Positions 18,374 through 24,212 of a stretch of 64,000 nucleotides of DNA are shown here, piece after piece. The DNA comes from an uncultured Pseudomonadota bacterium (GTDB lineage: Bacteria > Pseudomonadota > Alphaproteobacteria > Rs-D84). The first letter of the stretch is position 1, and the number at the start of each line of letters is the position of its first letter. The notes beneath the pieces were generated by a model. The model saw only the letters and a list, made by a program, of their open reading frames with translations. It ran no database searches and was not told the origin of the DNA. The DNA lies in assembly GCA_949290785.1 (NCBI GenBank), contig CASETE010000013.1:3529-67528 (forward strand). The letters are read 5' to 3'. A program made the translations under genes and the position numbers.

Positions 18374-18926
18374 ACACAAATTGTTATCGGAATTTCGTGC
18401 ATTTATAGAGCGGGGCAGTGCAATTGATATGGCAGTCGGTATCATTGTGGGTAGTGTGATGACCGGGTTGGTTAATTCTTTGGTGTCTGACGTTTTGATG
18501 CCGCCGATTGGCGCTTTGATTGGGAACGTTGATTTTTCTCAGTTCTTTATAGTTTTATCGGGCGGAACGCCCGGGGCGCATTATAATACGATTGCCGAAG
18601 CCCAAGCGGCAGGGGCAGCAACCATGAATGTCGGAAATTTCTTAAATTCTGTGGTTAGTTTTCTGATAACGATGTTTGCAATATTTTTACTTGTACGTTC
18701 TATAAATAAAGTAAGAGCAAAAAAAGTCTTTTTAGGAACAAGGTTTTGTCCATATTGCAAGTCTTCTATTAGTGTGGCGGCAACGAAGTGTCCTAATTGT
18801 TGCTCGAAAGTGAAGCCAGAAAAAAGCGTTGTGGTCGATGATAAAACTATCAATTTACGTTCCGATATCAAAAAAATAACAAAAGTAGCCAGTAAAAAAA
18901 TTTCAAAAATAACAAAGAGTTTATAA
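18366..18926 (+). CDS. mscL: Large-conductance mechanosensitive channel MscL with a C-terminal zinc-ribbon extension
   Basis: EFRAFIERGSAIDMAVGIIVG...LMPPIG and a second TM segment, then CPYCKSSISVAATKCPNCCSKV and a Lys-rich tail. Confidence 0.92.
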   Translation: MAKHKLLSEFRAFIERGSAIDMAVGIIVGSVMTGLVNSLVSDVLMPPIGALIGNVDFSQFFIVLSGGTPGAHYNTIAEAQAAGAATMNVGNFLNSVVSFLITMFAIFLLVRSINKVRAKKVFLGTRFCPYCKSSISVAATKCPNCCSKVKPEKSVVVDDKTINLRSDIKKITKVASKKISKITKSL

Positions 18927-19298
18927 TAAAATATAATGTAATATATTAATAAAAAGTAAAACTTGGGTTGTTGCGTGTTTGATAGATTGAATACGTGATA
19001 TAAGGAACAAAGTTTTACTTTTTTTGATTTTATGGCGCGTTGAATAGTTTGGTAATTATGTGTGTATTATGTATAGTTTTGTGCCATCGGTTTATGTTGG
19101 ATTTTGACTTTTAGGCTTTGGGTGTTTTTTTACGCCGCACAAGTACTGTTGTTATACAATTTGTTCGTATTTGTTTCTTATATGTGGGATGTTTATATGT
19201 TTGTATAATACTTTCAAAGTGTGTTTTATCTCTTTGTATAAAGATTAATTTTAATACGCGTTTAATTTTGGAATGGTGCGGATAAAAATCTGTTTTGT

Positions 19299-19680
19299 GG
19301 CGATGTTTTTATTTTTATGTTTATTGATGAATGTGTTTTTTTTGGGGGTGAATGGCGTTTTTTTGTTTTGGTGGGGGTTGGGTATTAATTTTATATCTGA
19401 ATTGTGAAATAGTTTAGGCAAGAAGCCGTTAAGAACCCGTTTTGGTGGCGCCGTTTTTGGTTTTATTGTTATTGATGAGTGTTCTTTTTACATGGGGGTG
19501 GAATTGGTGGTATTTTATTTTGATGAGGTCTGTATTTAATGTCTGAATTTATTACGTATTAAAAGACTGTAAAATTATTGGCCAACGTGCACAAAATACT
19601 CTCTGTAATAAACAGTCTTGCTATATATCAAAGACGGGCGACGCAGTGTGTAATTGTTTTTTTTGTGGGGATGATTGGAC
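19299..19680 (+). repeat. Three degenerate tandem units (about 148-175 bp) with a T-run + GGGGG + TGRATTGG core
   Basis: ttattgatga at 19321 and 19469. GGGGG at 19344 and 19494, GGGG at 19667. Units align at roughly two-thirds identity by eye. Confidence 0.6.
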
Positions 19681-20149
19681 ACTTTTAGAATGTATAATGT
19701 GTTTTTTGTAACTTTTATAAAAAGTATTTTGTTATTTGCTTGTATTATGTATAGTTTAGTCTTCAAAACGTTGCAAATGACGTGGGTTGTGGTGCTTGTT
19801 GGTGTTTCTGTGTAATCAGTTGTTTATATAAAATAATATAGAAAATACAACGAGTTAAATTTTGACGAGTAGGGCTTTTACGTTGTTTTAACCGAATTTG
19901 TTTGTTAAGGGGTGAAGATCAAAGTTTGTGTTGTTGAAGCGGGTCGGTTTTGTTTTGTGTTGCTGTGTTGTTGTATGGAATTTTTTTGTCGTCTTGCGGG
20001 GCCCGCATCTATATGAATCGAATTTGTAAAAGGGTGCTTGCTGTGTTTTGGGACATTTTTTGTGCATGTGTTTTGTCTTCGCTGTGGTTTTCGTTTGGTG
20101 AGGATTGTATCGGTCGTAACGATAGATAGGTTATAATACGTATAAGGCG

Positions 20150-20169
20150 CATAATGTCGCGACATTATG
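20150..20169. repeat. Perfect 20-bp palindrome cataatgtcg/cgacattatg
   Basis: Read directly. It shares the CATAATGT half-site with the inverted repeat at 20191. Confidence 0.9.
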
Positions 20170-20190
20170 TTGATTTACGAAGTAAATGAA

Positions 20191-20209
20191 CATAATGTGC
20201 ATTATACGC
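20191..20209 (+). repeat. Left inverted repeat of the AT-rich three-gene cassette
   Basis: cataatgtgcattatacgc matches the reverse complement of 21639-21657 at 17/19 positions. Confidence 0.6.
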
Positions 20210-20296
20210 ACGCAAGCGGGCGGGGCGGGGATACCAAATACGAAAAAACAAGCATGCTTTTCATCGTTTGATTCTTATTAAAATAAAGGATTAAAC

Positions 20297-20644
20297 ATGA
20301 TTAAAAATAAACCTTGTTATCGTAATACTGAAAAACTATTGTTTAGATATTTTCAAAGATTAAGATTATTAAAGCATTTTTCAAAACCTACCGAATATAT
20401 TCATGATATTATTTATGAATCTAATGCGTCAATTTGTGACGTTGGCCTTGTATTAAATAATCTAAACCTAACTAATGAACAGTCCGAAATTATTATAAAG
20501 TATTGTTCTAAGGGGCATGCACCTTTTATAAAAAATTCAAACGATTTTAACGTGTGGATTGACGCAATACATATTATACATAACGAATTTATAAAAAGAA
20601 ATATGATAAAAGGCATTTTGTATTCGTCTGAATATATTTGCTAA
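20297..20644 (+). CDS. Cassette gene 1: 115-aa hypothetical protein, possible sigma region-4/ArpU-like HTH
   Basis: Very AT-rich ORF with an AAGGA RBS. LNLTNEQSEIIIKYCSKG resembles a region-4-type helix-turn-helix; this is inference only. Confidence 0.55.
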   Translation: MIKNKPCYRNTEKLLFRYFQRLRLLKHFSKPTEYIHDIIYESNASICDVGLVLNNLNLTNEQSEIIIKYCSKGHAPFIKNSNDFNVWIDAIHIIHNEFIKRNMIKGILYSSEYIC

Positions 20645-20657
20645 AAAAGGATTATAA

Positions 20658-20987
20658 ATGTTAAAAGATTTATTAAATGCTTTATACGCAATTAAAGACA
20701 ATACGCGTTTAGGATTGTTAATTCGGTCTGGTCAAGATTTTGAACCGCAAAATGACGATGAATATCATGCTAAATGTTTATATTGCGAATTGTTAAAACA
20801 TTTTTTTGATGATAAATACAGCGCATATATTACGGCTGATACTATTAAACAAATTCTTGATTTGCGAAATGAAATATACAACCCGCAAAAAATACCACGT
20901 GTTGCTATGTATTTAAGAAATAAACTGCGTCCGGCACAACCGTTAACTGATGATTGGATTGTGTGGTTTGTTCGCAGATTTAGATAA
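20658..20987 (+). CDS. Cassette gene 2: 109-aa hypothetical protein
   Basis: AT-rich ORF 13 nt after gene 1, with an AAGGA-type RBS. No family recognised. Confidence 0.5.
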   Translation: MLKDLLNALYAIKDNTRLGLLIRSGQDFEPQNDDEYHAKCLYCELLKHFFDDKYSAYITADTIKQILDLRNEIYNPQKIPRVAMYLRNKLRPAQPLTDDWIVWFVRRFR

Positions 20988-21008
20988 TAAAAAATAAAGG
21001 TTGAAACT

Positions 21009-21350
21009 ATGAATAATTATAACATAATTGAAAATCATAATGAATATAAAAAAATCATGAAAAGAAAACAAACTATTACAAAAAAAGCAATAAAAAAGGC
21101 AATTCATGCTTTTTGCGATTTAGGCGGTTTTCAAATGCAACACATAGTCCGTTTGCGTATGTATAGTAAAGACAGGCTAATATTTGCAGGCATAGATTTA
21201 TTACATTTGCAAAATGCTATCCTTGAACTGCCTGATAGGGCATTAGAAGCAGTAAGTCAGTACGGCTATGATGAACCTTATTGTAAGGCAGATTTAGATT
21301 ATGCGCTTTCTATTTTGTCCGATAAATTAAAATTAAACGTTATTTATTAA
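21009..21350 (+). CDS. Cassette gene 3: 113-aa hypothetical protein, possible HTH
   Basis: AT-rich ORF with an AAGGT RBS. LQNAILELPDRALEAVSQYGYDE is reminiscent of sigma region 4. Confidence 0.5.
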   Translation: MNNYNIIENHNEYKKIMKRKQTITKKAIKKAIHAFCDLGGFQMQHIVRLRMYSKDRLIFAGIDLLHLQNAILELPDRALEAVSQYGYDEPYCKADLDYALSILSDKLKLNVIY

Positions 21351-21353
21351 TAA

Positions 21354-21381
21354 TATAGGCGGATTACGCCTATATTTTTTT
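21354..21381 (+). terminator. Rho-independent terminator after cassette gene 3
   Basis: tataggcg-gatta-cgcctata followed by ttttttt. Confidence 0.75.
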
Positions 21382-21638
21382 ATTCTTATTTATAAATAAA
21401 TAAATAAACAAATAATTATAATTATAACTATAATTATAAGGATTTAATAAAATTAAAATATTTTTTTAGCCACGTGCAAAAAATATTTTTTTAATAAATG
21501 CCGGTTTTCTGCGAAAAAAATCATTTTGTAAAAAATGTTTTTTATGATAAAATATTTTTTATCAAGCGGGGAAATGTAGGAGGTTGTTTTTTGTGTTTTG
21601 TAGACCCGCCCAGCATTACGGAGTAATGCGCACGCAAG

Positions 21639-21657
21639 GCGTATAATGTATATTATG
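21639..21657 (-). repeat. Right inverted repeat of the cassette
   Basis: gcgtataatgtatattatg; its reverse complement is cataatatacattatacgc. Confidence 0.6.
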
Positions 21658-21940
21658 TATACTTATGTTATTCGTTGTGGGGTGTTTTTTTGTGTGTTTT
21701 TGTTTTTTTATATTTTTTTGTGTTTTATGTCCGATTGGTATTTTTTTTGATCAGCGTGCTTGTTTTTTATATTTATTTTTTTATTAATAATTTTTATTTA
21801 ATACATAAAATATTATTTTGTTTATACAAATATAAAATGGTTTAATTTTATGTTAAATAAAATTTTGTTTGTATGATTTATGGCTGTTGTTTTTGTTACT
21901 CTTTATGTCGTTTTAGTGCGCTTGTACCCTATTTTTGAAC

Positions 21941-22150
21941 TTTTTGCTTGTTTTTTGTAAAAAAAACCAGAATTCCGGGCGTTTTTGAGTGTTTTTTGTC
22001 TTTTTTTGTGTTTTTTCGGAAAAAAGGAGGTTGGCGATGAGAAGTTTGTGTTATTGAGTCTCTGTGGTTTCATCGCCATATTGCAAATAAGGTGCTTTTT
22101 TGCTTGTTTTTTTGTGAAAAAGCCAGATTTTTGCGAATTTTTGTGCATCC
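21941..22150 (+). repeat. Direct repeat pair with 156-bp period in tract B
   Basis: tttttgcttgttttttgtaaaaaaaaccagaattccgggcgtttttg (21941) versus ttttttgcttgtttttttgtgaaaaagccagatttttgcgaatttttg (22096). Confidence 0.6.
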
Positions 22151-22478
22151 TTGGTCCTTTTGTATTTCTTTTTGGAGTAAAAGCGTGTTTTTTTTGCTTG
22201 GTTGTTAGTCTGAAAATGGAACGTTTTTAAAAGTTTGTGTGTGTTTAGGTGGACTTGCGTCGTTTTACGGTTTGTTTTTTGCTGTGGTGTGTAATATCTG
22301 AAAGGTGGTGTTTTTTTACCTGTTTTCAATTAAAATATTTTATTAATATAATAAAATAATAATTTGAAAAGATTTTATATTTTTTATTTTTTTATCGTAA
22401 TTTTTTATCTTTTTGTGTGTTGTGGCTTTTGTTTTTGTCTTCTTGAAAATGGATGTTTTTTGAGGTAAAATATTAAGT

Positions 22479-23192
22479 ATGAGACTTGATCAAGAATTAG
22501 TTAATAGAAATATTTATCCAACTCGTGCTAAAGCTGTGGCGGGAATAAAAAGCGGCTTGGTGCGGGTAAATGGTGTTGTCGCCAGTAAGGCAAGTCAAAA
22601 TGTTTCGGATAAAGACGATGTGATGGGAGATAAATTGCCTTATATGTCTGGTCGTGGTAGTTTGAAGTTGAAATATGCTTTGGATTTTTTTAAAGTAAAT
22701 CCAAATGGTTATGTTTGTTTGGATGTTGGTGCGAGTACAGGCGGTTTTACAGAAGTTTTATTAAAGCGTGGTGCTAAAAAAGTGATTGCTGTTGATGTTG
22801 GAACTGGGCAGTTGGTGCCAGAATTATATAACAATCCGAAAGTGGTGGCACTGGAAAAAACAGACGTTCGTAAATTGGTGCCTTTTGAAAAGGTTGATTT
22901 GATTGTTGTTGATGTTTCTTTTATTTCGTTGGTTAATATTGCGGACAGTTTATTACGTTGGAATGCTGATAAGATGATATTGCTTGTAAAGCCTCAGTTT
23001 GAGGTAGATAGGGCAATTGCTGCAAAAAATAACGGCGTTATAAAATCTGAATTTGATAGACAGCAAAGTGCGGATAAGGTGAGGAAGTGCTTTGAGGATT
23101 TGGATTTTGTGTGTGCTGGTGTAGTTGAGTCGCCTGTTCGTGGTGGTAGTGGAAATGTAGAATTTTTAATGTATCTTGAAAAAGATATATAA
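22479..23192 (+). CDS. tlyA: TlyA-family rRNA (cytidine-2'-O)-methyltransferase
   Basis: N-terminal S4 domain (RLDQELVNRNIYPTRAKA...I..G.V.VNG) followed by the FtsJ-type motif CLDVGASTGGFTEVLL. Confidence 0.92.
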   Translation: MRLDQELVNRNIYPTRAKAVAGIKSGLVRVNGVVASKASQNVSDKDDVMGDKLPYMSGRGSLKLKYALDFFKVNPNGYVCLDVGASTGGFTEVLLKRGAKKVIAVDVGTGQLVPELYNNPKVVALEKTDVRKLVPFEKVDLIVVDVSFISLVNIADSLLRWNADKMILLVKPQFEVDRAIAAKNNGVIKSEFDRQQSADKVRKCFEDLDFVCAGVVESPVRGGSGNVEFLMYLEKDI

Positions 23193-24212
23193 TTAAGTTG
23201 ATTTTTAGTGTTAAATATTGTCTTTGGTGTTTTTTGAAAAAATTTCTAATAAAACAAACGTTCAAACACCGGGCTTTTAACGGCTTATAAAAAACAATGT
23301 TAAAAAATATACAAAATGTGTGGCATGTTTTATTGATTTTATGAAAGGCCGCCCACTTATAATTAAACGAATATGAAAACGTATACTTTTTATCAATACT
23401 TCTTAAAATAATTGATTGCAGAGATGATAAAAGATACGAACTTCAAATTATCCGAAAACTTATAATTGTTTGAGAGTGTCGTTTTTTATCGGTGATGTCG
23501 TTAGAAATATGAATATGGTGTTTTTTGTTATTACGCAGATTGCTGTATGATAATCGGGTGGCACCCTTTCTATATAAAAACATCAAACAGATAAACATAG
23601 TATAGTAAATAACGAAACGTATTGTCCGGTGTACCGGTTTTTTGTGAACCTGTGCATAATTAATCAACATTTAATAGCGCCCTTTAATCTGAAAGCAAGA
23701 AAATAAGCCTTAAACAGAAATATTAAAGGGGCAAGTTTTAGAAAAAATGTTTGCGACCGAATTTGTGCTATTAGTACAGTCAAAAAATGCGCTATATTTC
23801 AAAGCATATTTAAACCCCTGTTTGTTTTATCCTTAAAAGCTAAAACAGTGCCCTATTCTTTTTTATTTATTGTTTGTTTTTACTGTTGTTTTTTTTATTT
23901 TGGAAAATCCCGGATTTTTATAAATGTGACCTGGATAATTATATGTATATAAGGTTAGTTTTTATCAAATGCGTATGGTATACATAAATCTGTGATGATT
24001 TTTGGTAAAAGCAAACTTGGTTGTATTGGTTAGGAGTGAGTGTGGACAAGGCTCGTTTATTCTTTTAAGTTTTTTGTTTATCAAGTGCTATTTATCTTGG
24101 AAAATCGTGGTATAAAATGTGTTTGTATTATGTTGCGTTATAAAAACGCTTGCTTCTTGCTGTGTGGTTTATGTGAAAAAACGCTCCGTCAGGAGCGTTT
24201 TTGTCGTTGTTT
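23193..24212 (+). other. Gene-poor tract C (1.0 kb) between tlyA and rpiB
   Basis: Only short low-complexity ORFs. It contains two copies of the TTGGAAAATC..GG..TATAAA(A)TGTG motif (23900, 24097). Confidence 0.65.

Follow-up and report, generated by a model that had tools for sequence, protein, structure and literature searches.

What is a cassette of three small, AT-rich genes between inverted repeats doing in a compact bacterial genome, and how might it have come to lie there? The cassette occupies positions 20150-21657 of a 64,000-nt stretch of DNA (the window; contig CASETE010000013.1 of assembly GCA_949290785.1) from an uncultured gut alphaproteobacterium of the genus Candidatus Enterousia. 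A first-pass annotation, made from the letters alone, had taken it for a small foreign module, such as a miniature mobile element, that corresponded to no described element. We consider it likely that the cassette is an IMEX (integrative mobile element that exploits Xer) of ~1.5 kb (about 1,492 bp), which sits at the chromosomal dif site with a folded attachment (att) site like that of the Vibrio cholerae phage CTXphi, and we infer that it recombines through XerC and XerD. The kind of element is therefore one already described, of which this is an unusually small form.

The dif site and the predicted two-site hairpin

The right end of the cassette (21636-21664) is the single dif site of the host chromosome. 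It has the 28-bp dif layout, in which a XerC arm and a XerD arm of 11 bp each stand on either side of a 6-bp centre, and AAGGCGTATAA-TGTATA-TTATGTATACT agrees with E. coli dif (PMC3025954) at 21-22 of 28 positions, the centre being identical. The last 29 bp (AAGGCG[T/C]ATAA-TGTATA-TTATGTATA[C/G]TT) are matched at 93-100% identity in 244 of the 327 genomes of the order, usually once per genome, and the window's own genome (G000) holds one canonical copy. In the inspected loci dif always lies between aroK or mscL and tlyA (synteny aroK-(mscL)-dif-tlyA), with no other similarity in the flanks. Two Xer-like tyrosine recombinases are encoded in the window's genome, on contigs other than that of the element. 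The XerD-like protein (288 aa, C6) has its best match to NF001399 'tyrosine recombinase' (308.7 bits, cut-off 279) and scores 294 bits against the XerD model TIGR02225, and the XerC-like protein (304 aa, C7) has its best match to the XerC model TIGR02224 (293 bits); both XerC/XerD equivalog scores are under the curated equivalog cut-offs. The genome also has a 405-aa phage-type tyrosine integrase (G000:C9:45665-46168, L029), which is unrelated to the dif locus.

As judged from its sequence, the left end (20144-20209) is a pair of inverted dif-like sites predicted to form one hairpin, an arrangement also described for CTXphi attP. The centre is 10 nt long in site A; in site B it is 6 nt long (TGCACA) and lies between inverted XerD and XerC arms. 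In all copies of this design (type I; a sister type II is described below) the centre of site A is 10-13 nt long and starts with TG(T). It begins TGT, like the dif centre, except for TTT in a single host, whose dif centre is TTTATA. The DNA of the circular joint folds with -38.4 kcal/mol, compared with -18.2 ± 2.6 for shuffled sequences (z = -7.9). Among 13 elements the XerC arm of site B covaries with that of the right end, the variable pair being Watson-Crick (T/A or C/G) in 11 and G-T in 2. In the window, the element's own arm and site B carry T and A, and the left chromosomal arm carries a C that disrupts the pairing, as the model predicts. The stem also extends past the protein-binding arms, with compensatory changes among the 13 elements (TTTAC/GTAAA, GTTGC/GCAAC, GCCGC/GCGGC, TTTGCGC/GCGCAAA). 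One end holds the two hairpin arms together, and at the opposite end the element's XerC arm runs directly into the chromosomal centre and XerD arm. This is the junction pattern of exchange on the XerC side, and the circular joint described below agrees with it.

These sites account for the repeats that had first drawn attention to the locus. The genes, their AAGG-type ribosome-binding sites, the terminator, the palindrome and the repeats are all present where the first-pass annotation placed them. The inverted repeat (20191-20209 and 21639-21657) matches at 17 of 19 positions and extends to 27 nt at 81% (20183-20209 and 21639-21665), and a direct repeat, ATACGCACGCAAG/ATGCGCACGCAAG, lies at 20204-20216 and 21626-21638. 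A chance origin of the bounding repeats is countered by their retention with the genes in every copy found and by the genus-wide conservation of the right repeat. The 8-mer CATAATGT had been read as an operator for the cassette's own proteins, and a perfect 20-bp palindrome (20150-20169) as guarding the unit. However, CATAATGT is not enriched across the window (6 found, 4.1 expected) and instead represents the inner parts of XerC- and XerD-binding arms, the right-hand one belonging to the host dif. The palindrome consists of the inner halves of two arms around a long centre, and that 10-nt centre differs between copies: at its position other copies have TGTGGCGACA, TGGGGCGACA or TGTCGCCACA, so that the symmetry is perfect only in the window's copy. 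Because TGTGGCGACA or TGGGGCGACA stands there in other copies, we regard the perfect symmetry as accidental. We dropped the operator role, the motif being part of the Xer arms and the palindrome lacking conservation.

In CTXphi, inverted sites attP1 (12-bp centre) and attP2 (5-7-bp centre) fold into attP(+), XerC alone swaps one strand pair, and replication completes integration (PMC4246890). Our proposed mechanism for the element is similar. In its free form the two dif-like sites, A with the 10-nt and B with the 6-nt centre, would fold into a single hairpin, either in single-stranded DNA or as a cruciform extruded from a double-stranded circle. The hairpin would present XerC- and XerD-binding arms on either side of a bulged centre, and host XerC would swap one strand pair at the border between XerC arm and centre, aided by the TGT that centre A has in common with the dif centre TGTATA. 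Replication would then resolve the junction. Both hairpin arms would end up at the left end, behind the chromosomal XerC arm, and an intact dif would be rebuilt at the right end.

The element resembles CTXphi and RS1 in having no recombinase of its own and in lying at dif. The similarity extends to the inverted orientation of the two sites, to their centres (the long one 10-13 nt here and 12 bp in CTXphi, the short one 6-7 and 5-7 bp), to the homology with the dif centre only beside the XerC arm, and to an integrated form in which both sites share one end and the opposite end has a rebuilt dif, together with tandem or circular joints. In contrast, the hairpin loop is 3 nt long, and ~90 nt in CTXphi; with so short a loop, cruciform extrusion from double-stranded DNA is conceivable. 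Unlike CTXphi, the element has no RstA-type rolling-circle initiator, inovirus genes or CTXphi-related proteins, and its host is a gut alphaproteobacterium with a tiny genome. CTXphi measures 6.9 kb and RS1 2.7 kb, compared with 1.5 kb here. We class the element as one that would work like CTXphi at its att site but leave it outside the CTXphi phage family, because it has no HUH/Rep-like gene that could serve as a rolling-circle initiator.

Kilobase-sized cargo between inverted Xer sites, with no recombinase, is also found in the pdif modules of Acinetobacter plasmids. The cassette would be such a 'dif module' if site B and dif, which do bracket the three genes in inverted orientation, let it move as double-stranded DNA by Xer recombination, without any folded hairpin and with site A as an incidental relic; its small size and lack of a recombinase would suit this. 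We nevertheless give the idea hardly any credence. Site A lies inside the homology block, no type I copy is without it and its centre is long in all of them, and sites A and B stand back to back, with compensatory changes in the stem extension past the protein-binding arms. The hairpin model predicts exactly the join between XerC arm and centre A that is seen in the circular or tandem contig described below. The Acinetobacter modules, moreover, are plasmid-borne and have neither a hairpin pair nor a chromosomal dif target.

Copies, empty sites and a circular or tandem form

The view of the cassette as a foreign, mobile module is borne out by near-identity of the unit in another species and by empty sites in congeners. 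The unit 20144-21664 is 97.5% identical, with sharp edges, in a metagenome scaffold (L005; gene order hisS, prfA, an outer-membrane protein gene, aroK, cassette, tlyA), and 96-97.5% identical across this scaffold and genome G247. The hisS, prfA, aroK and tlyA genes of these two are only 69-72% identical to those of the window, and synonymous divergence (dS), at 0.08-0.23 for the cassette, has reached saturation in aroK and tlyA. When 20155-21646 is removed in silico, 20144-20154 is joined to 21647-21664, and the resulting 29-mer is identical to the empty sites of two congeners (L022, L023). A search for further copies, which the first-pass annotation had proposed along with one for empty sites, found full copies among the other genomes of the order (327 genomes) only in G282, G247 and G233, and divergent relatives in G145, in G191 and at a second site in G282. 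The element family is present in 6 of 256 congeners, and the dif of most congeners is without this element.

A form other than the integrated one is represented by a 1,573-bp metagenome contig (L058), whose 77-nt terminal repeat implies a circle or tandem unit of 1,496 bp. The contig is 96.2% identical to, and colinear with, the circle that the model predicts. At its joint (marked by a slash), which reads tail-GCGTATAA/TGTCGCCACA-TTATGTTGATTTAC-GAA-..., TGTATA is absent and the element's own XerC arm directly meets centre A. The general form of the circular or tandem joint is tail-GCGTATAA/TGTCGC(C/G)ACA-.

Searches of Pfam, PHROGs and NCBIfam found no replication-initiator (HUH/Rep-like) or capsid gene in the element, and no recombinase gene is present: its only open reading frames are those of p1, p2 and p3 (109-115 aa), which have no credible family match. 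Because it has no recombinase, replication-initiator or capsid gene, the element must depend on functions of the host or of a helper. An IS200/IS605-type element with subterminal hairpins was considered and dropped, as neither an HUH/Y1 transposase nor a conserved His-hydrophobic-His motif is present. The missing replication, structural and recombination genes could also point to an immobile, decayed remnant of a larger prophage or plasmid once integrated at dif, with genes that are leftovers or domesticated regulators; the about 5 kb of surrounding gene-poor DNA and relict sites near dif in relatives (L015, L055) would fit such a history. This explanation is very improbable. The three genes, the tail and the ends keep a constant size in at least five hosts, and a sister type carries the set with another att design; the genes are under strong purifying selection; near-identity between species persists despite saturated flanks; and a circular or tandem form exists.

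Cargo genes and non-coding blocks

The three co-oriented genes, each preceded by an AAGG-type ribosome-binding site, are as AT-rich as the first-pass annotation had noted, with 28.6% GC compared with 40.8% for the window. The GC content at third codon positions is 0.21-0.24, compared with 0.28-0.39 in adjoining genes. They are real genes under purifying selection, with ratios of nonsynonymous to synonymous substitution (dN/dS) of 0.02-0.34 (0.06-0.34 for p1 and 0.02-0.22 for p3). All three products are mildly basic (pI 8.6-9.0), comparison among them detects no paralogy, and none has a credible match in Pfam (E <= 1), PHROGs, NCBIfam, PADLOC or PDB sequence profiles. The helix-turn-helix (HTH) segments of sigma region-4/ArpU type that had been proposed in proteins 1 and 3 went unconfirmed in the Pfam, PHROG, NCBIfam and PDB sequence comparisons.

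Homologues of p1 occur only in p1-p2-p3 elements and, at 31% identity, as a solo chromosomal gene in another family of the order (125 aa; G030, L004 1429-1806, minus strand). That gene has no recognisable dif nearby; its neighbours are a gene for a DUF374-like acyltransferase and a small gene with a product that, judged by eye, resembles an HTH protein. A hidden Markov model search with p2 over 1.84 billion representative proteins returned its own family only. The protein has 41 invariant columns and a six-helix AlphaFold2 model (mean predicted confidence, pLDDT, 88), for which Foldseek gave no match with E < 0.1 in PDB or BFVD. The p3 model (pLDDT 82) combines a long basic helix with a compact C-terminal domain, and Foldseek against PDB likewise gave nothing with E < 0.1, the likeness to sigma region 4 being non-significant (E about 3, probability 0.28). 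The cargo probably consists of DNA-binding regulators or accessory factors.

Several non-coding parts of the element are also conserved (Table 1). The operon leader is 98.9% conserved between the window and L005, and its G-rich block can pair with CCCGCCC at 21605-21611 in the fold of the circular joint. The AT-rich block behind the terminator is the best-conserved non-coding block in both element types, at 92% in G233 (L010), where the genes are at 74-90%, and at 77.5% in L035, where they are at 58-73%. A promoter-like site that is kept in all type I and type II tails points towards the att site. In the circular or tandem form this putative promoter would read over attP into p1-p3, and only there; in the integrated form it would read outward across dif. 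An Rfam search over 18800-22600 gave only sub-threshold noise.

The chromosome around dif contains long, gene-free spacers that are T/G-rich and strand-skewed (18927-20143, 21665-22478 and 23193-24212), in a genome that is otherwise compact. The right spacer is 72% conserved in G282, where the spacer adjoining tlyA is 72% identical to window 21665-22476. The spacers have no similarity to any of the elements and are not obvious element remnants.

Table 1. Features of the cassette in the window, with the loci of related elements in other genomes
Feature	Position	Strand	Remarks
XerC-type arm of left junction, AAGGCGCATAA (GCGCATAA)	20144-20154	+	From the chromosome's original dif in the model; homology block starts here
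Site A: 10-nt centre TGTCGCGACA and XerD-type arm with stem extension TTATGTTGATTTAC	20155-20178	+	5' arm of predicted att hairpin
Hairpin loop GAA	20179-20181	+	
Site B: inverted dif-like site, GCGTATAA-TGCACA-TTATGTTCATTTAC	20182-20209	-	3' arm of predicted att hairpin; left inverted repeat of the first-pass annotation
Operon leader	20210-20296	+	Contains G-rich block 20216-20230
Gene p1	20297-20644	+	115 aa; orphan; most variable of p1-p3
Gene p2	20658-20987	+	109 aa; orphan; most conserved of p1-p3; six helices predicted
Gene p3	21009-21350	+	113 aa; orphan; long basic N-terminal helix and compact C-terminal domain
Intrinsic terminator of p1-p3 operon	21352-21386	+	10-pair stem 21352-21376, then T-run
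AT-rich block, (ATAA)n then ATTATAATTATAA..TATAATTATAAG	21386-21447	+	Conserved; candidate origin or protein-binding array
Promoter-like site, extended -10 (TTGTAA-16 nt-TG-TAAAAT)	21526-21553	+	Points towards att site
Small perfect hairpin GCATTAC-GGA-GTAATGC	21613-21629	+	Just inside right end
Element's own XerC-type arm AAGGCGTATAA	21636-21646	+	Perfect complement of TTATACGC in site B
Chromosomal part of rebuilt dif: centre TGTATA and XerD arm TTATGTATACTT	21647-21664	+	
Type II elements	L032 2150-4154 (G145); L038 2845-4908; L042; L043/L034 (G282:C10); L033 (G191); L056		
Microvirus prophages	L030 1546-7512 (G170); L031 1932-7679 (G177); L045; L046; L049; L053; others		

Sister elements, microviruses and other users of dif

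The divergent relatives define a second type of element. Type II elements (1.8-2.0 kb) carry the same p1-p2-p3 set and a fourth small gene, and their att arrangement is the mirror image of that in type I: a site with a 7-nt centre lies beside p1, and an inverted dif-like site lies at the tail end, roughly 10-100 nt before the true dif. The sequence pattern of their junctions fits, and suggests, exchange on the XerD side, the mirror of the CTX geometry. In one type II locus (L038) each end has a copy of a unit made up of the inverted site, a stretch of roughly 95 nt and the dif-like site. Genome G282 appears to have a single dif with a type I element on one side and a type II element on the other; from mscL onward the order is type I, dif, type II, 7-nt-centre site, spacer, tlyA, and the array is divided between two contig ends (L008 on C21 and L034 on C10). 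Relict inverted dif-like sites lie by dif at L015 1545-1573 and L055 3062-3631 (G286), the latter with a gene-less tail-like stretch, and suggest earlier element turnover at dif.

Microviridae prophages are present in 13 of the 256 congeners, and in the loci examined they lie at or beside the same dif and use both att designs. The complete ones (4.3-5.9 kb) have genes for an F-type capsid protein, for a Rep that contains an HYH motif and for a pilot protein, and six of the prophages have CTX-like two-site hairpins. The 66-bp hairpin of the window is 73-79% identical to those of the prophages in G170, G173, G177 and G251. Relative to the reactive orientation of the hairpin, the prophage genes are antisense in G170 and G177 and sense in G173, a mixture that hints at a cruciform or a replicative form as a possible substrate. 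The cassette has neither the capsid nor the Rep gene of such a prophage, and the window's genome has no match to the major capsid family PF02305 (Phage_F).

The shared dif raises the possibility that the element is a satellite of the Microviridae of its genus, which would have copied their att module, be replicated by the Rep of a helper and be packaged as a 1.5-kb single strand in microvirus capsids, with three proteins that manipulate helper or host. The microviruses use the same two att designs (the hairpin with long and short centres, and the 7-nt centre), and the hairpins themselves are similar. Type II loci and microvirus-bearing loci have a common stretch of roughly 130-150 nt (the att-adjacent tail end and dif), a tail-like remnant adjoins a microvirus in G286, and the element has no replication and capsid genes of its own. 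However, there is no similarity to the microviruses in protein or DNA outside att: tblastn with p1-p3 gave no match at E <= 1 for G170 and G177, nor at E <= 0.01 in all 13 loci. The AT-rich block is absent from the microvirus prophages, on which ground we dropped a common origin. No carrier genome has a capsid gene, and the element family was not found in IMG/VR viral contigs or in JGI metagenome contigs. A satellite relationship is possible but unsupported, and we rate it as unlikely. It would make the p1-p2-p3 elements the first satellites or hitchhikers of the Microviridae, a doubtful proposition in which 'first' is said without a literature search on Microviridae satellites. If it held, circles of 1.5-2 kb that carry no more than an att hairpin, an AT-rich block acting in cis as an origin or in packaging, and three small proteins would borrow host XerC and XerD for lysogeny and a microvirus for replication and transfer, and two mirror-image att designs, for XerC-side and XerD-side exchange, would let two elements flank one dif.

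We thus retain the IMEX with a folded att site as the likely identity of the cassette, although several points weigh against it. The action of XerC and XerD, the strand that would be exchanged and a single-stranded stage are all inferred from sequence. The circular or tandem contig could be a tandem chromosomal array and not a free circle. The element encodes no replication protein and none of the six family-carrying genomes has a microvirus capsid gene, which leaves the origin of new copies unexplained. The microvirus prophages of G170 and G177, with the same hairpin, have their genes antisense to its reactive orientation, so the folded strand is not always the virion strand. Finally, dif lies only loosely where a terminus would be expected, the terminus itself being located approximately. 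In the complete 958,618-bp contig of congener G249 (G249:C1, L065-L112) the cumulative GC skew has its minimum at 178 kb and its maximum at 690 kb, with dif at 571 kb (~120 kb from the maximum) and dnaA at 348 kb, so that both lie away from the skew extremes. The distance from dnaA to dif is 22-25% of the genome in two complete relatives, and the GC skew of the window's own contig has no clean switch.

The known IMEXs are mainly filamentous phages (those of Vibrio, Xanthomonas and their relatives), the gonococcal island and, lately, gokushoviruses of enterobacteria. The prophages of the last group (EC6098 and relatives) integrate at dif through XerC/XerD (Kirchberger and Ochman 2020, PMC7062461), and like the element they are small, circular and integrase-less. 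They differ in that they are complete viruses (4.3-4.7 kb) for which one phage dif-motif is described, whereas the element has a two-site hairpin and no viral genes; the Enterousia microviruses are closer in that they have the dif site and the att designs in common with the cassette. A further comparison is the satellite phage TLCphi, which is reported to be a XerD-first IMEX with a Xer activator, XafT (PMC6744903, PMC9226527), and carries its own replication module (PMC4246890). It is similarly a small, non-autonomous IMEX beside other IMEXs at one dif, and the type II relatives have the junction pattern expected of a XerD-side exchange. The window's element, in contrast, is of the XerC-side type, and p1-p3 have no credible Pfam family (E <= 1). 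At ~1.5 kb the element is smaller than the IMEXs named in PMC4246890.

In summary, a CTXphi-style two-site hairpin is predicted in a ~1.5-kb element that has no viral, replication or recombination gene and whose hosts are uncultured gut alphaproteobacteria with genomes of roughly 1 Mb. The finding locates the dif site of the genus Candidatus Enterousia, and the orphan proteins p1-p3, among them the conserved p2, whose fold is without a match in PDB or BFVD, are candidates for new Xer-accessory or replication functions. The trick of a folded att site would extend beyond the inoviruses, and the sister type suggests that a mirrored, XerD-side version of it exists. In these reduced genomes the region of dif forms a hot spot, where unrelated mini-elements and microviruses have att modules in common.

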